From: a virus
Lineage: Duplodnaviria; Caudoviricetes
Virus record (IMG/VR): IMGVR_UViG_3300045015_000053
Strand: one strand, 5' to 3'
Length of the DNA stretch: 64,000 nt
The translations under genes were made by a program, and so were the position numbers. The notes beneath the pieces are model-generated. The model ran no database searches and was not told the origin of the DNA. It was given only the letters and a program-made list of their open reading frames with translations. Below, piece after piece: positions 5,205 through 35,115 of this stretch (the first letter of the stretch is position 1; each line of letters opens with the position of its first letter).

Positions 5205-5804
5205 ATGGAAAGCGCCATTTATGGCAAAGGCATGGCCGGCAAGGGAGTTACGCCGTCCATCGCCCTTTGCAATCCGAAGTACGCTCACAACGTGGGTACG
5301 ATTGTCCGCGCCGCTTCTTGTTTCGGAGCGAAGCAAGTTTGGTTTTCCGGCAACCGGGTGTCGCTCGACCCGAAGAAGGGGGAGCGGTTGCCGCGAGAGG
5401 AGCGGATGAAGGGCTACAAGAACGTCGAACTGCGTCAGTACGACTACTTCTTCGACATGTTCGAGAAGGACGTGGTTCCGGTGGCGATTGAGCTTCGCCC
5501 CGGCAGCGAGTTGTTGACGGACTTCGTCCACCCGGAGAAGGCGTTGTACGTCTTCGGGCCGGAAGACGGCAGCATCCCGCAAGTCATGATGCGTCACTGC
5601 CATCGGTTCGTCGTGATCCCCACACACCACTGCGTCAACCTCGCGGCGGCGGTCTACATGATCCTGTACGACCGCATGTTGAAGCGGCACCAGACCGGCG
5701 AGGAACCGATCACCTCGATGGACGAAATCCTGAAAGAGAATCGGGGCTGGTCGTCGCCCGACAACAACGGCGAAACCCGTGACTTGCTGGAAACGATGAA
5801 GTAA
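5205..5804 (+). CDS. SpoU/TrmH-family (SPOUT) RNA 2'-O-methyltransferase
   Basis: NPKYAHNVGTIVRAASCFG; FGPEDGSIP; CVNLAAAVYMILYDR. Confidence 0.85.
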   Translation: MESAIYGKGMAGKGVTPSIALCNPKYAHNVGTIVRAASCFGAKQVWFSGNRVSLDPKKGERLPREERMKGYKNVELRQYDYFFDMFEKDVVPVAIELRPGSELLTDFVHPEKALYVFGPEDGSIPQVMMRHCHRFVVIPTHHCVNLAAAVYMILYDRMLKRHQTGEEPITSMDEILKENRGWSSPDNNGETRDLLETMK

Positions 5805-5808
5805 AAGG

Positions 5809-5838
5809 CTCCCCGTGGCACAAACCACGGGGGGTTTT
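5809..5838 (+). terminator. intrinsic terminator
   Basis: CCCCGTGG-cacaaa-CCACGGGG followed by GGTTTT. Confidence 0.7.
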
Positions 5839-5855
5839 GCTAAAAATGGCCTATA

Positions 5856-6401
5856 GTGACGGTGTTTCCACAAGAAGGGGATGTTGCCGTGAACTATGCT
5901 CGTAAGCTTCTCGCTTGGACGAACCGCTCCGAGAAGCCGTATGCGACTCACTCGGTCGTTTTGGTCGTAGAAGACAACAAGCGGAAAGGCACCTTCGGGC
6001 TGTGCATCAACCGCCCCGCGCCGATCCTGCCGTGTACCTGTGGTCAGTGTCCGGTTCCGCCCGTGCCTCTGTACCTCGGCGGGCCGAAGCATCTTGACAA
6101 CCGATACTTTCTTCTCCATGATCAACCGCTGGCTGCGGACAAGCGTGACCGCGTCATCGAAAAGGTGTACGTCTCATGCCCATACGCTCTGAAGGAACTT
6201 CAGGGTGAAGGCAAGGACCGGGGCAAGATGATCACCGGGTACTTCCACTGGCTTCCCGGCGAACTCGAAGAAGAGGTCGCGATGGGCTGGTGGGAGGTCA
6301 ATGACAAGCCCACGCACGAACAGGTTCTTGTTTCGGAACCGCGCCACGTTTGGGGGAAACTGGTCCCCCTGACCGAACGGATCTATCCGAGTGCGAACTG
6401 A
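5856..6401 (+). CDS. YqgE/AlgH (DUF179)-like protein
   Basis: VVLVVE...GTFGLCINRP; LYLGGP; GYFHW.PGELEEEVAMGWW. Confidence 0.8.
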   Translation: MTVFPQEGDVAVNYARKLLAWTNRSEKPYATHSVVLVVEDNKRKGTFGLCINRPAPILPCTCGQCPVPPVPLYLGGPKHLDNRYFLLHDQPLAADKRDRVIEKVYVSCPYALKELQGEGKDRGKMITGYFHWLPGELEEEVAMGWWEVNDKPTHEQVLVSEPRHVWGKLVPLTERIYPSAN

Positions 6402-7465
6402 TGCTCACCTGTCCCGAATGCGGCGCGGAAATGATTCTCCGCGAGACGACGAAGTACACCTACAAGAACGGCGACCCTCGCAAGTTCTACGGGTGCAGCA
6501 GATGGCCGGATTGTAACGCCACGCACGGCGCACACCCCAACGGTTCGCCGTTGGGTGTTCCGGCCAACAAGGAAACGAAAGACGCTCGAATCGCCGCACA
6601 CGCGGCCTTCGACGGCCACTGGCAGGAACTCGGCCTTCAACGCAACGAGGGCTACCGGCTGCTCAGGGACATCATGGGTATGAGCAAAGAAGAAGCTCAT
6701 ATCGCCAACTTCAACAAGGAACAGTGCCAAACATTGATCGACAAGATCAAGCAACGCAGGGAGAATCCGATGGTCAGGGGCTTCAAAGGCGTCACCTTTT
6801 CTGGCGCGGACTGTGACACCGAGATCGGGACTCTCGTTGAGCTTCAGGGGCGGTTTCCGTACATGGAGGTTGGCGTTCTCTGGTCGCTGACGAAAGCCGG
6901 TACTCCGCGTTACCCACACCGAGATTGGATCGAAAAGGCCACCGAGCGTGGTCTGCGGTTCTCGCTGCACCTGTGCGGCAAGGTCGCGCGGACGATGGTA
7001 GAAGGCACCGAAACACCGGAAATCCCCGGCAAGCCGAAACGCATCCAGATCAACTGTAACGGGATGCGGGGGATGACGGGCTGGTTCCGGGCGTTCCACT
7101 CGATCATCCAAAAGAACACGGAACTGGACAGCGACCTTCAGTTCATCATTCAGGCCGGCGAAGCGGCGGGTGCGTACTGGGTCGGCCGTGCCGAGGGCGA
7201 AGGTCACAACGTCGCGCCGCTGTTCGACAAGAGCGGCGGGCGTGGTGTGGAGACGGACGACTGGCCCGCCCCGCTCGCGGTCAGTTACAACGGGTACGCG
7301 GGCGGCATCGGCCCGGACAACGTGCAGGCGGTCGTGAAGAAGATCGGGACGTTCAAGACCGACTTCTGGATCGACATGGAGTCTCGCATCAGGACGGGGG
7401 ACAAGTTCGACTTGGACAAAGTCGTCCACGTCCTCAATCTCGTGGACACAATGATCGAACGGTGA
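6401..7465 (+). CDS. topoisomerase-type Zn-ribbon/DUF3268-like domain in frame with TrpF-like TIM-barrel phage protein
   Basis: CPECGAEM..FYGCSRWPDC; second half has LFDKSGGRG, GYAGGIGPDNV, WIDMES; internal GGGAG-N6-ATG at 6770. Confidence 0.65.
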   Translation: MLTCPECGAEMILRETTKYTYKNGDPRKFYGCSRWPDCNATHGAHPNGSPLGVPANKETKDARIAAHAAFDGHWQELGLQRNEGYRLLRDIMGMSKEEAHIANFNKEQCQTLIDKIKQRRENPMVRGFKGVTFSGADCDTEIGTLVELQGRFPYMEVGVLWSLTKAGTPRYPHRDWIEKATERGLRFSLHLCGKVARTMVEGTETPEIPGKPKRIQINCNGMRGMTGWFRAFHSIIQKNTELDSDLQFIIQAGEAAGAYWVGRAEGEGHNVAPLFDKSGGRGVETDDWPAPLAVSYNGYAGGIGPDNVQAVVKKIGTFKTDFWIDMESRIRTGDKFDLDKVVHVLNLVDTMIER

Positions 7466-7468
7466 CAA

Positions 7469-7693
7469 ATGACTCTCGAAGAACTGAAAGAAATCGTGAT
7501 CGAGAAGTTCAAGGCGTCTTTGATTCAACGCAATCAGTGGTCAAAGGTGATCATTGATTCCCCAGACGTTTTGCGAGCCGCCATTCTTCAAGAGGACGGG
7601 ATGATTATCGCTTACGGCGACATCATCAAAACGATTGACCCGGATTGGGAACTGGACCCCAATTTCAAAGCATACGAAGTACAAACAGGGTGA
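7469..7693 (+). CDS. hypothetical protein
   Basis: ORF track. Confidence 0.5.
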   Translation: MTLEELKEIVIEKFKASLIQRNQWSKVIIDSPDVLRAAILQEDGMIIAYGDIIKTIDPDWELDPNFKAYEVQTG

Positions 7694-7700
7694 GGAAGTC

Positions 7701-8009
7701 ATGACGCTTCAAGAGATCTATGCGATCATCTGGAAAGAAGGCGTGAATTCGCCTTCTTTGCCGCGAGGGTGGCTTCTTCCGCAAAACCTGAAACCGGCCC
7801 AGATCAACGAACATTTCCCGGTCGATGCTTTGGTCATGGTTATGGCCGATTCTTACGGGGAACGCGATTTCGTTTACCCGAATCTGAGAAAGAGATCGTG
7901 GTGGTTCGGTCGTGTCGAGGCAGCAACAAGTGACAGGAACGTTCGTGTCAGAAGTACGTTTTCGGGAGCAGTTCGTTCGGTTCCGTACAATAAGATCAGG
8001 ATTTACTAA
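7701..8009 (+). CDS. hypothetical protein
   Basis: GAGG-type RBS before ATG 7701. Confidence 0.5.
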   Translation: MTLQEIYAIIWKEGVNSPSLPRGWLLPQNLKPAQINEHFPVDALVMVMADSYGERDFVYPNLRKRSWWFGRVEAATSDRNVRVRSTFSGAVRSVPYNKIRIY

Positions 8010-8010
8010 C

Positions 8011-8448
8011 ATGACCGTCGTCTGCCAGAACCGCAAAGCCCGCTTCGATTATGAGGTTGTCGAAACCGTCGAAGCGGGTATTGTGCTGAAAGGCACGGAA
8101 ATCAAATCCGTGCGAAACCACCGCGTTTCTCTCGACGGAGCGTATGCCAGCGTGGACGCCGGAAACGTTACGCTAGTCGGCTGCAACATCGAGCCGTATT
8201 CGCACGGCAATGTTCACAATCACGAAGCCAAGCGTGACCGACGCCTGTTGCTCAACCGGAGCGAGATCGACAAGATCGCGAGCAAAGCGGCGGTGAGGGG
8301 GTTCACGTTGATCCCGCTGTCGATGTACATCAAGGACGGTCGCGCCAAGATCGAACTGGCCGTCTGTCGCGGTCGGCAGACGCACGACAAGCGGCACGCC
8401 ATCAAGGACCGCGAAGTGAAGAAGGCGATGAAACGGGGAAAATTCTGA
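8011..8448 (+). CDS. smpB: SsrA-binding protein SmpB
   Basis: NRKARFDYEVVETVEAGIVLKGTEIKSVR; RDRRLLLNRSEI; KIELAVCRG..HDKR. Confidence 0.95.
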   Translation: MTVVCQNRKARFDYEVVETVEAGIVLKGTEIKSVRNHRVSLDGAYASVDAGNVTLVGCNIEPYSHGNVHNHEAKRDRRLLLNRSEIDKIASKAAVRGFTLIPLSMYIKDGRAKIELAVCRGRQTHDKRHAIKDREVKKAMKRGKF

Positions 8449-9610: not shown

Positions 9611-9639
9611 TTGACAACGGTGCGAAACTGGCCTACATT
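9611..9639 (+). promoter_or_regulatory. sigma70-type promoter
   Basis: TTGACA-N17-TACATT. Confidence 0.7.
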
Positions 9640-9676
9640 GATTTCATCAGGCCGCAGCACCACCCGTGGGCCGCAA

Positions 9677-9706
9677 CCCCGGAGCGAGCCAAAATTCGCT
9701 CCGGGG
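9677..9706 (+). promoter_or_regulatory. 11-bp GC hairpin in 5' leader of pth2-like gene
   Basis: CCCCGGAGCGA-gccaaaat-TCGCTCCGGGG. Confidence 0.65.
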
Positions 9707-9731
9707 CATTTAACTCAAACTGGATACTACG

Positions 9732-10112
9732 ATGAAGACTCAGATCACTGCCGAACACCTGTAGGTTTCTGAAGAGAACACTCCGTACTGTTACCTCTTC
9801 TTGCGGGAAGATCTTCCCCGCGTCTACAGTGCGGTCCAAGCGTGCCATGCCGCCATCGGCGGCGGGCAGTTCTTGATCCCCCAAAACATCCCACACCCGC
9901 ACCTCGTTCTGCTCAGGGCTTCCTCCGAGCAGGAGCTTCGCAACATCGCGTCCCGTTTGGAACGCGACGGGGTACGTCATTACGTTTTCACCGAGCCAGA
10001 CATCGGTAATCAAACTACTGCGTTGATTACCGAGCCGGTATATGGTGACAAGCGTCGAGCGTTCCGTCGTTATCGCTGTGTGAACGAACCGCCGAAATTA
10101 GATAGCGGATAA
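9732..10112 (+). CDS. Pth2-like peptidyl-tRNA hydrolase with in-frame TAG at codon 11
   Basis: MKTQITAEHL*VSEENTPYCYLFLREDLP..AVQACHAA..HLVLL..EQEL..F.EPDIGNQTTA. Confidence 0.75.
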
Positions 10113-10150
10113 TTGTATGGAAACACATATGTGTTTCCATACATGGCGGC

Positions 10151-10630
10151 ATGGAAACAATCACTTGTATTCGATGCCGCCAATCCAAACCTCCAGAAGC
10201 TTTTCGTTTTAGAAACAAGTCTCTGGGGAAACGAGACACGCGATGTCGCGAATGTTTTTGCGACTATCACAAGCTGGTTTACGACCGGCTAACACCAGAA
10301 CAAAAACAACAAAAAACGAAGTCTTCAACCGACTGTCGGAGGCGACTTAGGGCGAAGCTACATGCGGTGGTGTGGAATTACCTGTCTACGCACCCATGTG
10401 TGGATTGCGGTGAAAACGACCCGGTCGTTCTGGAGTTCGATCACCGCGATCCTGAGCAAAAAGTAGAAACGATCTGCGGCTTGCTCAGAAATCTGGCTGA
10501 CAACCACACGCTGCTGACTGAAATTGCAAAATGCGACGTAAGGTGTGCCAATTGCCACCGACGCAAAACAGCAAAGCAATTTGGTTGGCACGCATTACGA
10601 GAGACTTATTATGAACACGAAAACGAATGA
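10151..10630 (+). CDS. HNH endonuclease
   Basis: CVDCGENDPVVLEFDH...KCDVRCANCHRRKT; N-terminal CxxC pairs. Confidence 0.85.
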   Translation: METITCIRCRQSKPPEAFRFRNKSLGKRDTRCRECFCDYHKLVYDRLTPEQKQQKTKSSTDCRRRLRAKLHAVVWNYLSTHPCVDCGENDPVVLEFDHRDPEQKVETICGLLRNLADNHTLLTEIAKCDVRCANCHRRKTAKQFGWHALRETYYEHENE

Positions 10631-13109: not shown

Positions 13110-13552
13110 AAGATCTTCTTCGCAATCTGCATGTCGTCACCACGCACCAAACGTGGAGCCTGTTCGTGAAACAGGTTTCTGCAATCCCAGAGGCCACGCC
13201 AGAAACCGCCTTCCGTCAGATTCTGAAAATGGCAATTCAGACCTTCCCCGCAGCACGGTATTCTGACAACATGAAGGCACTGCGCAAAAGATGGGAAGGG
13301 AAAGCGGCCAGCGTCAAGGCGTGGACTGCCAGCATCGGTCTGCCTAGCGAGGCCGAAACCTTCCAGATCATCCCGGCCGAAAATAGGCTTGTGTTTTCCG
13401 CCGAGAAGTGTGGTGTGCCGTTTTTGGAAGACATGATCCAGATCGCATATCCTGAGTGCATGTACAAGCCGTTTAACTGGATGCCGTTTAGCCGTCAAGT
13501 AGTTTTTGAAGGTCAAAACAAGTCCGGCATTAACATTGGAGACGTGAAGTGA
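13106..13552 (+). CDS. hypothetical protein (paralog-like to previous gene)
   Basis: IQIAYPEC..W..F..GQNKSGINI; ATGA overlap. Confidence 0.55.
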   Translation: MKDLLRNLHVVTTHQTWSLFVKQVSAIPEATPETAFRQILKMAIQTFPAARYSDNMKALRKRWEGKAASVKAWTASIGLPSEAETFQIIPAENRLVFSAEKCGVPFLEDMIQIAYPECMYKPFNWMPFSRQVVFEGQNKSGINIGDVK

Positions 13553-14826
13553 ACCCCAACATCCGCCCACTCCCCGACAAAATCGGCGTCGGCTTCCTGA
13601 GTCCTGAAAAGATCGGCGCGAGCGATTACCGCGAGGAGCGGGCCGCTCACGTCTGGCACTACTTCTTCACACCAGAACGTTGGACTTGGCCGCTGTGGGA
13701 CTCGGCCGATCAAGAGAAACCCGGCCCGTCGTTCAAGATCGACGCCTTCTCGCCCAATCTCAACAAGAGCCTGCACTTCGGCCATTTGCGTCAACTCGCA
13801 CTGGCCCATTGCATCGGCCGTCTACTGCCACGCACGCAATTCGTTTCGCTGTTGGGATGCACCGGCATCCTTCAGTCGGCACAAGACGAACTGAAGGACT
13901 GGCTCGATTTCCTCAACATGCGTCCGAAACTGTACTACGACGCCCTGATGCCGCACGACCCGACCATCGTGGAGCGTCACGATGGAGAAGGCGACAAGGC
14001 CGGCGCGATGGTGTGGGACGGACCACTCGGCCCGGTCGTCGTCATGCGGAAGCCGGACGAATCGGGTCACCGCCGTCCGACTTATGCCTTCCACGATCTC
14101 GCTTTTGCGAAGATCGTGGGACCGGACTATTACATCACCGGCGCGGAACAAGTTGAACACTTCCGCAGTCTGGGGTTGGGCAACAAGCACCTGCCGATGG
14201 GCCTCGTCGTTGACGCCGAGGGCAAAAAGCTGAAGAGTCGTTCCGGTGACGCGATGACGGCCAAAGAGGGCTTCGAGGCGGTCGAACTCGCCATGAAGCC
14301 GGTTCCAGATCCGAAGAAGATCGTCTGGAACATCGTGGCGTGGAACATGCTGTCGGTCGGCCGCAGCACGAACGTCAAGTTCGAGCCGGAAAAGTGGGTG
14401 AAGCCGGAAGCTCCGGGGATGTACTGCTCGTACACATGGGCGCGGCTGTACTCCGCTCTGGGCGGGCTGTACCGTGGCGACGGCAGTGACATGACCCAGA
14501 GCGATGCGGAACTGGCGGGGTATTCTCAGTACCGCCACTACTACATCGCGAAGGCTCGCCAGAGCATGGACCCGGCTCCGCTGGCGAACTACCTGTACGA
14601 TCTGTGCCGCCGCGCTACGAAGGCGTACCACAGCGAGCGTATTCGTGACGGTCGTCGCGGGTTCCAGTTCGCGGTGAGCCACGCGATGAACGGCATCTAC
14701 GACTGCATGAACGCCCTCGGCCTGTTCCCAATCAAGATGCGGGAGGAAGACGATGTTCGAGACAACGGGGCCGCATTACTGCCCGAACTGCGAGCCGATA
14801 CTGAACAAGAAAGACCGTCGTGTTGA
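13549..14826 (+). CDS. argS: arginyl-tRNA synthetase-like protein (compact)
   Basis: FSPNLNKSLHFGHLR (HIGH), KLKSRSG (KMSKS-like), YITGAEQ.EHF, DALR-like MYCSYTWARLYS. Confidence 0.75.
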   Translation: MNPNIRPLPDKIGVGFLSPEKIGASDYREERAAHVWHYFFTPERWTWPLWDSADQEKPGPSFKIDAFSPNLNKSLHFGHLRQLALAHCIGRLLPRTQFVSLLGCTGILQSAQDELKDWLDFLNMRPKLYYDALMPHDPTIVERHDGEGDKAGAMVWDGPLGPVVVMRKPDESGHRRPTYAFHDLAFAKIVGPDYYITGAEQVEHFRSLGLGNKHLPMGLVVDAEGKKLKSRSGDAMTAKEGFEAVELAMKPVPDPKKIVWNIVAWNMLSVGRSTNVKFEPEKWVKPEAPGMYCSYTWARLYSALGGLYRGDGSDMTQSDAELAGYSQYRHYYIAKARQSMDPAPLANYLYDLCRRATKAYHSERIRDGRRGFQFAVSHAMNGIYDCMNALGLFPIKMREEDDVRDNGAALLPELRADTEQERPSC

Positions 14827-27736: not shown

Positions 27737-28132
27737 ATGATCAGCCCAAAAGAACTCCGCAAACTGACTGACGAAGCTCTGGTCAACGCCGAGAAGGAAC
27801 GAACTCGGCAGGCCGAGGAGCAGTTGCGGATTGCCGAAGAGAACAAAAAGAAACGCGAGAACCGCGCCGCGACGATTCTGGCCGAGATCCCCGCAAAAGC
27901 TCGCGAGGCGGCGGTGAAGGGGAGTTGTTCGGTCGCCATCATGCGACTAGAATACCCTGAGTTCGACAAACCGTCCGGCACCCACTTCGCCCTTTGCGAA
28001 CCGCAATGGTTGAAGGGCGCGGCCAAGATCGTGTGGGATCACTGCGTCGAGGCCAATCTGAAGCCGAGGCTGGAACACTGGCACGACGGCGTGGGCATCC
28101 ACGAGAGCTTCGACATCATCGTACAATGGTAG
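27737..28132 (+). CDS. hypothetical protein
   Basis: GAGG RBS. Confidence 0.55.
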   Translation: MISPKELRKLTDEALVNAEKERTRQAEEQLRIAEENKKKRENRAATILAEIPAKAREAAVKGSCSVAIMRLEYPEFDKPSGTHFALCEPQWLKGAAKIVWDHCVEANLKPRLEHWHDGVGIHESFDIIVQW

Positions 28133-29652: not shown

Positions 29653-30228
29653 ATGAAAACCTTCGCAGAGTGGCTCGCCGTGGAAGCTCGCGCACCCAAG
29701 AACGAGTTGTTGCAATACGCACCCAACAAGAAGTATTTCACCATTTCTCCGCAATGGCACGACTTCTCTATTTGGTTTGAAAAGCAACCGCCGTCCGACG
29801 CCGAACTCAGGATGATGGCCGAAATCATCAGCGGTCACGGATTCCCGACCAGAGTTGCCAAGACGGGCGAGCAATGGCCCTACAGCGGTGACAGGCGGTA
29901 CGACGATCTGGCTGACGAAATCCGTCACAAGTGGGACGTTGCAGTTGATGACGCCGTCGAGGGCGTCCGAAAGTATCGCGCCGTTGTCGGCAGGAAGATC
30001 TCACACGGCACTCACCACGACGGCGGCGAGCGGATGCCATTCTATAACGACCAGATCGCCACCATCGTACACAACCTGCGATACGTCAAAGACGACCCCG
30101 AAAAAGCCAAGAAGATGTTCGACGCAATGGACCGCAACACCAAGTTCATTCTCGTTCACGACGCCGGTATGTTCACCTCGGACGGCGCATTGACTCCAGT
30201 CGCATCACAGTACCTCCGAGGCTACTAA
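29653..30228 (+). CDS. hypothetical protein with MKTFAEW N-terminus
   Basis: resembles T4 internal-protein capsid-targeting sequence. Confidence 0.55.
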   Translation: MKTFAEWLAVEARAPKNELLQYAPNKKYFTISPQWHDFSIWFEKQPPSDAELRMMAEIISGHGFPTRVAKTGEQWPYSGDRRYDDLADEIRHKWDVAVDDAVEGVRKYRAVVGRKISHGTHHDGGERMPFYNDQIATIVHNLRYVKDDPEKAKKMFDAMDRNTKFILVHDAGMFTSDGALTPVASQYLRGY

Positions 30229-31184
30229 CTAAGATGAGGGATTGCCTTCTCGCCCACCCACGCGAGAATCTTGGTATCACCACGCTCTACCGCCTCGATC
30301 CAGCGGTGTTTGCCTTCGATAACGACCACCGGCCCTTTCACTGTGTAGGTGGGGTGTTTGCTCAACACTTCGTTCGCTTCCACGATGATCGGCCCTAAGC
30401 TTTGGCTGCACGGCAGGTACTGCGGTCCTGTCGGTTTGAGTTTGGCGGTTTCCACTTCCATCAACTTGAACTTCTTGCTCACCACCAGATCAATCGGCAC
30501 CGGGTCCAGCATTCCACGCACCTGATGCTCGTCAACTTCGGCTGCGTACTGGAAGAAACCCCACGAAACGGCTTGTTTGAAGAAGTCCTTCATCTTCCCG
30601 AACATCACGAACTTCTGGTCGTCGTCCTCCACGATTCCGTCTTTGGCCGCGAACGCGGTCATGGGATTCTTGTTTTCCGATTTTAGCAGCCGGCTCAGGT
30701 ACGGGAAAACGGCGGGCGGCACCAGTGATCGCGCCGCTTCGTAGCCTTTGTTGATGCACACGTCTTTGACGGTACTGGATCGGATGTTCCTGATCTTGTC
30801 CGGGCCGAAGACGTAGTAGAAGTTGAGTTGCGGGCCGTGCGCCCGCATGTTCCGCTCGATGGCCTGCTCGTACACCAGATCGCGAGCATCGCGAACCCCA
30901 CGAACGAGACAGATGTCGTTAAAATGAATGCCGCGTTCTGCGACCTGTTTCTTGCACCAGTCAACTGTCGTGGGGGTGTCAAGTATCTGGACGTAGGCTT
31001 TGGTGTGGGAGATTGATAGGGAGAGCATGTCCGCGCGTTCGCGGAGGGTGAAGGTGTAGTGCTTGGCGGGGTTGGGGCCAATGACCGCCTGAACCTCGTC
31101 GGCCATCTTGCAGGCTTGTTCGATGAGGTAAACGTGGCCGAGTTGTACGGGATCGTAACTGCCGGCGACGACAGCGATTTTCAT
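30225..31184 (-). CDS. coaD: phosphopantetheine adenylyltransferase fused to ParB/Srx-like domain
   Basis: GSYDPVQLGH; LVRGVRDARDLVYE; RSSTVKDV; C-terminal PIIV..VVIEGKHRW. Confidence 0.75.
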   Translation of the reverse strand: MKIAVVAGSYDPVQLGHVYLIEQACKMADEVQAVIGPNPAKHYTFTLRERADMLSLSISHTKAYVQILDTPTTVDWCKKQVAERGIHFNDICLVRGVRDARDLVYEQAIERNMRAHGPQLNFYYVFGPDKIRNIRSSTVKDVCINKGYEAARSLVPPAVFPYLSRLLKSENKNPMTAFAAKDGIVEDDDQKFVMFGKMKDFFKQAVSWGFFQYAAEVDEHQVRGMLDPVPIDLVVSKKFKLMEVETAKLKPTGPQYLPCSQSLGPIIVEANEVLSKHPTYTVKGPVVVIEGKHRWIEAVERGDTKILAWVGEKAIPHLS

Positions 31185-33932: not shown

Positions 33933-34139
33933 ATGAGCAAGCACAAGAAAAAGTTCGGCGTCTACCACTGGGACACGTTCGACAACACGAGCCTGTTCCT
34001 AAAGGACTTCGACACCGAAGAAGAGGCCGAAGCGTTCGTCCACGAACGGTATGCCGGTCGCATCCGAAGTACCGGCGCGGATCGCGTGGACATCGTTGAA
34101 GGTCCGGGGCATGTGGTTCAATCTTTTTCTGTAAGTTGA
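33933..34139 (+). CDS. hypothetical protein
   Basis: ORF track. Confidence 0.55.
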   Translation: MSKHKKKFGVYHWDTFDNTSLFLKDFDTEEEAEAFVHERYAGRIRSTGADRVDIVEGPGHVVQSFSVS

Positions 34140-34228
34140 TCCTGAAAAATTACTGCGAATTCAATTTCGCATCTTTACAACAGGCGCAGGAAACTTTAGA
34201 CTCTAAGAACACTCAACGGAGGTTCGTC

Positions 34229-34714
34229 ATGAGTTTCGAGGAAGTCCTGCGGCAGAAGATCAGCGGCACCAAGTCCAAAGTCGGCCGCAGCGTGCTGAAG
34301 GTCGCTCTGGGCGAGTTCCAGCAGAAGAACGCCAACGGAAAGGCTACCGAACAGGACGGCCTTTCCGTTGTCGAGAAGATCATCAACGGCAACCGCGAAA
34401 CGCTCGCCGTTTTGAAACAAGAAGACGCCCGTCGCGCCGACCTCGAAGAAGAGATCGTTACCCTCTCGTCGCTCCTCCCGACCTACCTGACGGCGGATGA
34501 GGTGTTGGAGAAGGTCCGCGCCGACAGTTCGCTGTTCGGGGAAGTCAATACAGTGCTGAGTCAAGGCGACAAAACCCGTCCGGTCGAAGACCCTGCGAAC
34601 GCCAAGCTGGTCGGTCGCGCGACGGGTTCGGTCGTCAAGTTCTTCAAGTCGGCAAACATTGCCGTGAAGGGCGACACCGTCAAAGAAGCCCTGTCGCGGT
34701 TGTTTCGTGAATAG
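34229..34714 (+). CDS. YqeY/GatB-like protein
   Basis: VLKVALGEFQQK..VVEKII..NRET..EEIVTLSSLLPTYLT. Confidence 0.65.
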   Translation: MSFEEVLRQKISGTKSKVGRSVLKVALGEFQQKNANGKATEQDGLSVVEKIINGNRETLAVLKQEDARRADLEEEIVTLSSLLPTYLTADEVLEKVRADSSLFGEVNTVLSQGDKTRPVEDPANAKLVGRATGSVVKFFKSANIAVKGDTVKEALSRLFRE

Positions 34715-34722
34715 GAGCTAAC

Positions 34723-35115
34723 ATGTCCACCATCGCTGACACGACCGAGTTCTCTCTCGACATCGGTGTCAACCCCGGTTTCTTCCACGACAACGCGGTT
34801 AAAGACCCGTTGAAGGTGGTCGCAGACCTGTGGCAGAAGTTCGCGGAAGAGATCTTCAAGGACTGTAACGTCTACGTCGCGGCGGTGATCTGCCCCACGA
34901 AAACCGTGTACAACACGGCGTGGGGCTGCCCGGCCGGTGGCGAAGACACCATCACCATCCACGGCGTTCGGAACCCGGAATTCACTCCGAACGAGGACGT
35001 GTGGAAGGTGACGGTGGGCCGCGTGGCGATTCGGTTGGCGAAAGAACTTCAACAATCTACGGCCTACTTGGTGTTCAGGAAGGTCGAGTTGTTGTACCTC
35101 AAGGCGAGTGCCTAG
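34723..35115 (+). CDS. hypothetical protein
   Basis: AGGAG RBS. Confidence 0.55.
   Translation: MSTIADTTEFSLDIGVNPGFFHDNAVKDPLKVVADLWQKFAEEIFKDCNVYVAAVICPTKTVYNTAWGCPAGGEDTITIHGVRNPEFTPNEDVWKVTVGRVAIRLAKELQQSTAYLVFRKVELLYLKASA

Follow-up and report, generated by a model that had tools for sequence, protein, structure and literature searches.

A Pth2-like gene with an in-frame UAG codon

The gene described here is located in a DNA window (the whole stretch that was analyzed, 64,000 nucleotides from IMG/VR virus record IMGVR_UViG_3300045015_000053) of a huge lake-water phage. Positions 9732 to 10112 encode a 126-residue protein with a Pth2 fold, and the eleventh codon of this gene is UAG (Table 1). 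The gene opens with ATG at 9732 and continues with AAG ACT CAG ATC ACT GCC GAA CAC CTG, followed by the TAG and then by GTT TCT GAA. A TTG codon at 9801 and the terminal TAA both share the frame of this ATG.

Table 1. The Pth2-like locus and translation-related neighbors, in window coordinates
Feature	Position	Strand	Description
SpoU-type methylase	5205-5804		Translation-related neighborhood
SmpB gene	7912-8448	+	Pfam SmpB, E = 3.6e-54; 1.3 kb upstream of the gated gene
Sigma-70-type promoter-like site	9611-9639	+	TTGACA, 17 nt, TACATT; 10/12 matches
5' leader hairpin	9677-9706	+	Predicted fold; 12 pairs (11 Watson-Crick and one G-U)
Ten-codon leader, the proposed true N-terminus	9732-9761	+	Peptide MKTQITAEHL; conserved in 8 distinct loci
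In-frame UAG gate	9762-9764	+	Codon 11, with G at +4; invariant in 8/8 clade loci
Pth2-like body	9765-10112	+	115 codons and TAA (10110-10112); in frame with the leader
TTG usable by gene callers as a start	9801-9803	+	Homologous codon varies (ATG, TTG, GTT, GTC)
Weak arginyl-tRNA-synthetase-like protein	13549-14826		DALR domain

A first-pass annotation of this region had described a consensus promoter, an 11-bp leader hairpin, and a coding string running from an ATG through a TAG in frame with a Pth2-like domain. The promoter is found where it was placed; shuffled versions of the region contain 0.4 promoter-like sites on average, and the layout TTGACAA ... CCTATATT also occurs upstream of homologs in the relatives L003, L005, and L008. 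The hairpin is likewise present, with a G-U pair added to its 11 Watson-Crick pairs, but it is not conserved: an alignment of relatives lacks the hairpin segment in L003, L004, and L005. Judged from this alignment, the hairpin is specific to the present phage and outside the conserved device, and we leave it out of the core device because relatives do not conserve it. The coding string is as the annotation gave it.

The same annotation had argued that the full protein can be made only if the TAG is passed, and the anatomy of the gene bears this out. The stretch from the TAG to TTG 9801 encodes VSEENTPYCYLF, which holds most of strand beta-1. This strand corresponds to residues 19 to 25 of the read-through protein in an AlphaFold model, and TTG 9801 is residue 24, so initiation at the TTG would delete a core strand. 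Neither the start codons ATG, GTG, and TTG nor the codons ATT, ATC, ATA, and CTG are found between the TAG and TTG 9801. Moreover, TTG 9801 is not preceded by a Shine-Dalgarno sequence comparable to that before the leader start, and in all relatives an AAGGA or GGAG Shine-Dalgarno-like sequence lies within the roughly 20 nt upstream of the leader start. The in-frame stop is located between a Shine-Dalgarno-preceded start and beta-1, and no other usable start is available. TTG 9801 is most likely an internal Leu codon rather than a start.

Two other arrangements at the stop codon were considered and set aside. Frameshifting by +1 or -1, or hopping, at CUG-UAG-G is rejected because no frame change separates leader from body and because relatives conserve a Val codon directly after the stop. 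A hairpin based on the ACCU ... AGGU symmetry around the stop is rejected because its loop would comprise just 0 to 2 nt.

A perfect 28-bp palindrome (10115-10142; GTATGGAAACACAT then ATGTGTTTCCATAC) is located 3 nt past the stop codon of the Pth2-like gene. Its core, CATGGAAACA, is repeated at 10150-10159 over the ATG of the next gene (10151-10630), which encodes a Cys-rich protein that has an HNH-like D-H ... N ... C-x-x-C-H motif and no Pfam hit.

Conservation among close relatives

Two public contigs of the present phage were reached by means of a window protein: L009 (Logan SRR35359075, 182 kb), whose positions minus 8600 give window positions, and L010 (JGI 3300045005). A stretch of 531 nt around the gene, TAG included, is 100% identical in the window, L009, and L010. 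Identity across three assemblies defeats the objection, raised with the first-pass reading, that the TAG might be a sequencing error.

Six further distinct homologs, from other metagenomes and one 586-kb contig, have 53% to 76% protein identity, and the clade loci are monophyletic on the protein tree with 100/100 support. Searches with an alignment of this close clade found nothing in GTDB genomes or IMG/VR, and one contig only in metagenomes. Seven of the eight clade loci, including that of the present phage, contain a ten-codon leader of the form M-x-x-x-[LIM]-T-A-x-H-[LT], the TAG, and a Val codon. The leader is also present in the eighth locus, L007, where its start is GTG. The comparison of homologs suggested along with the first reading therefore favors it, as the leader and TAG are kept in 8/8 clade loci.

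Leader changes among the clade loci are synonymous (Thr as ACT or ACC, Ala as GCC or GCT, His as CAC or CAT, and Leu as CTG, TTG, or CTA). The codon after the TAG always specifies Val (GTT, GTG, or GTA), and the segment PYCYLF is conserved with synonymous changes. Synonymous-type changes on both flanks of the TAG indicate that the ribosome reads this stretch in frame on either side of the stop. A start codon is absent directly after the TAG in four distinct loci, which account for five of the fetched relatives; a possible start (GTG) is present at this position in only one distinct relative, L001, which is represented twice because L002 duplicates it. The codon equivalent to TTG 9801 is GTT or GTC, and hence not a start, in L001 and L008; therefore, no downstream start could yield an intact domain in these two relatives.

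In L006 (an ENA contig of 653 bp), positions 216-245 contain an out-of-frame copy of the gene start (M-R-D-D-L-S-H-V-Y-G-A) between the gate and the domain. The insert is either a local duplication or a product of chimeric, low-coverage assembly. Despite the out-of-frame copy, the leader and TAG of L006 remain in frame with the domain.

Identity of the protein and its gene neighborhood

The Pfam PTH2 profile (PF01981) scores the read-through protein at 20.3 bits, which is below the gathering cut-off of 23 bits. Profile positions 7-99 are covered by the read-through protein, and only 19-99 by a version that starts at the TTG. The AlphaFold model, which was built from 82 homologs, has a mean pLDDT of 91.7. 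When the model was compared with the PDB by using Foldseek, ranks 1-13 were all Pth2 structures (E = 1.8e-5 to 1.2e-3, TM about 0.6-0.69); Pth2 hits include AF2095, MJ0051, PH1539, human Bit1, and S. solfataricus Pth2, and unrelated folds begin at E = 0.07 (rank 16). The modeling thus confirms the Pth2 alpha/beta fold predicted for the read-through protein. Single-sequence searches also gave PDB matches to large toxin proteins (E = 0.014); these are weak, and the fold and profile results are preferred.

A profile of the family matches Pth2 chains in the PDB (E = 4.9e-6 to 7.6e-3), and its R-x-D-L and V-Q-x-x-H-A motifs align with every Pth2 chain shown. In an E-P-D motif, the Asp (residue 90) hardly varies, and the sole alignment reaching that position pairs it with the D of D-A-G in 24bt_A. 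We take this residue to correspond to the catalytic Asp of the D-x-G motif (D86 of S. solfataricus). The family has a two-residue deletion exactly where Pth2 chains carry r-g-K, t-g-K, or k-g-K, and the deleted Gly-Lys loop presumably carries the catalytic Lys (K18 of S. solfataricus). Because this loop is deleted and the Pfam score is below threshold, peptidyl-tRNA hydrolase activity is not assured. We term the protein Pth2-like; it likely acts on a tRNA ester bond.

Several neighbors of the gene are related to translation (Table 1). In L003, L004/L012, and L005/L013, smpB is likewise found 1.1-2.3 kb upstream of the homolog. SmpB is a conserved neighbor that gives context, and its participation in the device is not proven. 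A tmRNA gene was found neither in the window nor in the fetched flanks. The neighborhood at 5205-8448 also encodes a DUF179/AlgH protein, as well as a zinc-ribbon/DUF3268 protein with a weak PRAI-like tail.

A suppressor tRNA in a phage that uses the standard code

The present phage has one tRNA with anticodon CUA, predicted by ARAGORN at L009 7079-7150 on the plus strand. This location corresponds to window positions -1521 to -1450, just outside the window, and is 11.2 kb upstream of ATG 9732 on the same strand. In a targeted Rfam scan, the tRNA scores 53.9 bits against the full tRNA model, folding into a normal cloverleaf whose anticodon loop reads CU-CUA-AA. It was not reported when 106 kb were scanned with Rfam at the gathering threshold, which is a filter effect, because the targeted scan gave that score. 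With L009 identical to the window over the 531 nt compared, a suppressor tRNA whose anticodon matches the gate is present in the same genome. The tRNA is 11 kb distant from the gate in the present phage and is adjacent to it in many relatives. On the 586-kb relative contig, two tRNA(CUA) genes (54.6 and 47.4 bits) precede the homolog by 9-10 kb.

A second T-arm and acceptor 3' half is located at L009 7160-7215 (window positions of about -1440 to -1385), directly after the tRNA(CUA). It ends in the same ...AAGGTGGGC 3' end as the tRNA(CUA), and no complete tRNA was called there.

Of 84 genes called in the window by a crude gene finder, 44 end in TGA, 29 in TAA, and 11 in TAG (about 13%). That TAG is a true stop elsewhere, as the first-pass annotation had stated, is seen in ORFs 34136-34714 and 34723-35115, which both end in TAG and the second of which starts 9 nt past the end of the first. 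No other ORF that is TAG-gated or needs TAG to be read was found in the 64-kb window, and the window shows neither the many genes with in-frame TAG codons nor the loss of TAG as terminator that mark "code 15." The phage uses the standard code, in which TAG is a stop, and the gate that is kept in 8/8 clade loci is set within it. Because about 13% of the genes end in TAG, strong suppression should be costly.

Among the 11 TAG-ending genes, which include 27737-28132, 30225-31184 (minus strand), and 34723-35115, the base at +4 is T in six. The next in-frame stop follows a TAG after a median of 8 codons, compared with 19 for TAA and 32 for TGA (one-sided Mann-Whitney p = 0.009). From this small sample of crude gene calls, it looks as if the true TAG stops are hardened against the phage's own amber suppressor.

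Stop codons and anticodons match across the family

The protein family comprises 1065 representative clusters at E values up to 1e-3. A 12-sequence profile, a subset of a 60-sequence alignment, was used to collect 80 IMG/VR loci, each with flanks of 10 kb; most of them come from phages of 100-570 kb. At each locus, the domain was located by HMM, and we determined the in-frame stop that bounds it, any start between this stop and beta-1, any start up to 12 codons upstream of the stop, and suppressor tRNAs predicted by ARAGORN. The resulting survey set consists of 78 distinct loci, mostly from jumbo phages, and includes the present clade.

Strict gating is found in 54 of the 78 loci. In all 41 strictly gated loci with a suppressor tRNA within 10 kb, the stop codon corresponds to the anticodon of that tRNA, with no mismatches. 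These pairs comprise 36 TAG gates with CUA anticodons, four TGA gates with UCA, and one TAA gate with UUA. By a simple permutation that ignores relatedness, the probability of exact matching is about 3e-7. No suppressor tRNA was found in the fetched DNA of 13 gated loci, several of which are on short contigs. About ten further loci are gated more intricately, by two or three stops, by a stop that is internal, or with a start that closely follows the stop.

The leaders of the four TGA-gated genes are unrelated, and the genes are dispersed over the protein tree. The best tree needs four changes to explain the TGA gates, and well-supported branches force only one. Independent origins of the TGA gates were therefore rejected as a proven conclusion, as the protein tree is too poorly resolved.

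In the 40 strictly gated loci for which the base after the stop was tallied, it is G in 19, A in 18, C in three, and T in none (purine in 37/40). Established work on stop-codon context indicates that a 3' purine favors amber suppression and that a 3' U gives the strongest termination. Leaders in the family are usually two to four codons long, and the ten-codon leader is particular to the present clade. The local motif H-(L/T)-stop-V is seen again in lineages that are distant from it.

Some relatives (L015, L018, L022, and L044, all IMG/VR) have two or three TAG gates per gene; one TAG follows the leader, and another interrupts the domain around profile position 40. Three other IMG/VR loci, L086, L087, and L090, have an ordinary ATG start and are ungated, yet a CUA tRNA is located 350-600 nt downstream. 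Therefore, the linkage between enzyme and tRNA outlasts the gate, which hints that the two are functionally tied beyond regulation.

Gated genes in cultured phages

A tblastn search found the family in 37 phage records, six of which were inspected. The Pth2-like gene has an ATG-AAG-TAG gate in XacN1 and RAS14, ATG-ACT-TAG in ME3, ATG-GCA-CAA-TAG in CBB, and ATG-TTG-TAG in RsoM2USA. RaK2, the ungated one of the six, has an ordinary ATG start. In XacN1, the gated gene is ORF364, and the ATG-AAG-TAG is located just 5' of the annotated start, in frame with the Pth2-like domain. In ME3, an annotated tRNA with anticodon CTA is present about 450 nt upstream. Gene callers truncate or miss the gated genes in L009, L010, ME3, CBB, RAS14, and RsoM2USA, and these annotations can now be corrected. 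Because five carriers (XacN1, RAS14, ME3, CBB, and RsoM2USA) are in culture, bench tests are feasible now.

In L094 (XacN1 ORF364) and L099 (RAS14), which represent Xanthomonas/Stenotrophomonas phages, the domain makes up the C-terminal third of a roughly 280-residue protein whose third codon is TAG. A similar fusion is found in L025, L029, L066, and L075, with a normal start and no suppressor tRNA within 10 kb. In L025, L029, and L066, an ATG-TAG persists a few codons before the normal start.

Proposed mechanism and alternative explanations

What is established directly is the anatomy and conservation of the gene, that the tRNA is present, and that gate and anticodon match across the family. 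Together with the standard code of the phage, these points suggest that expression of the Pth2-like protein is probably gated by the phage's own amber suppressor tRNA. The host RNA polymerase would transcribe the gene from the sigma-70-type promoter at 9611, and translation would initiate at ATG 9732. With no reader of UAG present, RF1 would terminate translation and release a ten-residue peptide. Once the phage tRNA(CUA) is made and charged, the UAG could be decoded and the whole protein produced, and the purine in UAG-G would favor this amber suppression. The gene might be described as a translational AND-gate: it would report the activity of the suppressor in a phage where TAG otherwise means stop. 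Suppression itself, the inserted amino acid, and the action of the enzyme are parts of this account that we infer.

The first-pass annotation had named two triggers for passage through the TAG, a limiting supply of release factor or the presence of a suppressor tRNA. The second fits the data well, given the tRNA(CUA) 11.2 kb upstream and the agreement of gate and anticodon in 41/41 loci. According to the first, near-cognate host tRNAs would pass the UAG only when RF1 is scarce, and the gene would report termination stress. RF1 must indeed compete at the UAG, and a weak-termination context, mostly a purine and never U after the stop, would also aid near-cognate read-through. However, a pure sensor of this kind does not predict the gate-anticodon match, which extends to TGA/UCA and TAA/UUA, and the present phage itself has a canonical tRNA(CUA). 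We see no sign that a shortage of release factor is the primary signal, though RF1 must compete; this trigger is not supported as stated, and we regard an RF1 sensor as improbable.

It is very unlikely that the locus consists of two cistrons, namely a ten-codon upstream ORF and an enzyme that is started separately, by re-initiation after the TAG or at TTG 9801. Bacteria are known to terminate and then re-initiate at adjacent codons, and the GTG that follows the TAG in L001 is taken as a start by the gene caller. In other relatives, however, the codon after the TAG is GTT or GTA, which is not a start, and yet it always specifies Val. The position of the TTG is no more favorable to re-initiation, as its equivalent is GTT or GTC in L001 and L008, it lacks a Shine-Dalgarno sequence, and its use as a start loses beta-1.

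Genome-wide recoding, in which TAG would be read as sense throughout ("code 15"), has a still smaller chance of applying here. Recoded jumbo phages are well documented (bioRxiv 10.1101/2021.08.26.457843; PMC13037316), and the present phage does have a CUA tRNA. Nevertheless, TAG ends 11/84 of its genes, often with the next gene within a few bases, and no other ORF in the 64 kb needs TAG to be read. The T at +4 in 6/11 of these stops and the nearness of the next in-frame stop (median 8 codons) also argue against recoding.

A dead gene or an assembly error might be suspected because gene callers passed over the gene or cut it short in L009 and L010, but the chance of either is negligible: three assemblies are identical, and the gate is shared by eight diverged loci that are under purifying selection and by over 50 distant phages. 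Insertion of pyrrolysine at the UAG, suggested by the ARAGORN label "Pyl," which derives solely from the anticodon, is just as implausible. The general tRNA model matches this tRNA from end to end, and its D-loop and T-loop are normal; the stretches examined showed no pyl genes, and other phages have the same device with TGA and TAA gates.

Possible functions of suppressor-dependent expression

If expression depends on the suppressor tRNA, the question is what the phage gains. Our leading suggestion, which we hold tentatively, is that the enzyme clears tRNA esters, such as peptidyl-tRNA and stalled products, that are built up by overridden termination, and that it works alongside SmpB. A clean-up enzyme under this control would be made exactly when suppression is on.

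A second idea, which we consider rather unlikely, is that the enzyme acts specifically on the suppressor tRNA of the phage and strips it of its amino acid or peptide, perhaps forming a negative-feedback loop. More suppression would yield more enzyme, and more enzyme would yield less suppression. If this idea is true, the phage, which still depends on TAG for termination, would keep read-through at a fixed level, and the system would be a tRNA-based counterpart of RF2 autoregulation. The first-pass annotation had also drawn an analogy to feedback of the RF2 kind; this analogy is not supported in the form given there, and it would require that the Pth2-like enzyme act back on suppression.

Apart from its purpose, a conserved, stop-gated, and anticodon-matched family offers a concrete and testable target for the suppressor tRNAs of standard-code jumbo phages. 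Suppression of stop codons could act as a dedicated switch for one gene, beside its role in recoding of whole genomes, and the pairing of gate and tRNA could be an evolutionary stepping stone to such recoding. The leader, stop codon, and tRNA might also serve as a compact natural part for synthetic control of translation.

Comparison with known systems

The prfB gene, which encodes RF2, resembles the present gene in that an early in-frame stop in a translation-factor gene makes output depend on how the stop is read. In prfB, the stop is an in-frame UGA that is passed by a +1 frameshift, and the product acts directly on the gating codon. In contrast, in-frame reading by a tRNA is proposed here, and the leader and body are in the same frame, so that no +1 shift is called for.

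Archaeal and eukaryotic Pth2 proteins (PF01981; AF2095, PDB 3erj; S. solfataricus, 1xty; human Bit1, 1q7s) share with the phage protein the fold, the R-x-D-L and V-Q-x-x-H-A motifs, and the Asp. Unlike these proteins, the phage family has lost the Gly-Lys loop and scores below the Pfam gathering cut-off. The occurrence of PTH2 in jumbo phages was noted by Iyer et al. in 2021, without reference to a stop gate or suppressor tRNAs (PMC7824862).

XacN1 (PMC5852040) and Atu_ph07 (PMC6102473) are, like the present phage, standard-code jumbo phages that contain CUA or UCA suppressor tRNAs and Pth genes. The report on XacN1 described two CUA suppressor tRNAs whose target genes could not be identified (PMC5852040). 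The gated Pth2-like gene supplies a candidate for the target that was not named there.

Borges et al. described recoded phages in which TAG is read as Gln ("code 15") and that encode suppressor tRNAs (bioRxiv 10.1101/2021.08.26.457843). Work on recoded phages also proposes that in-frame stops hold back expression, especially of late genes, until the tRNA appears (bioRxiv 10.1101/2021.08.26.457843; PMC13037316). As in those phages, a phage-borne suppressor tRNA would decide whether a gene with an in-frame stop is translated. In contrast to them, the present phage follows the standard code, has TAG at the end of about 13% of its genes, and has one gated gene in 64 kb; moreover, the gated gene is always Pth2-like, and the stop is always at the very N-terminus.

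Neither a full-text literature search nor the papers cited here on suppressor tRNAs and recoding in phages and on PTH2 in jumbo phages gave a description of a stop-gated Pth2-like gene with a matching suppressor tRNA in standard-code phages. Phage suppressor tRNAs, stops that delay late genes in recoded phages, and PTH2 genes in jumbo phages are all already known. To these, the present window adds a clade in which a long, conserved leader precedes the stop and the matching tRNA is distant from the gene.
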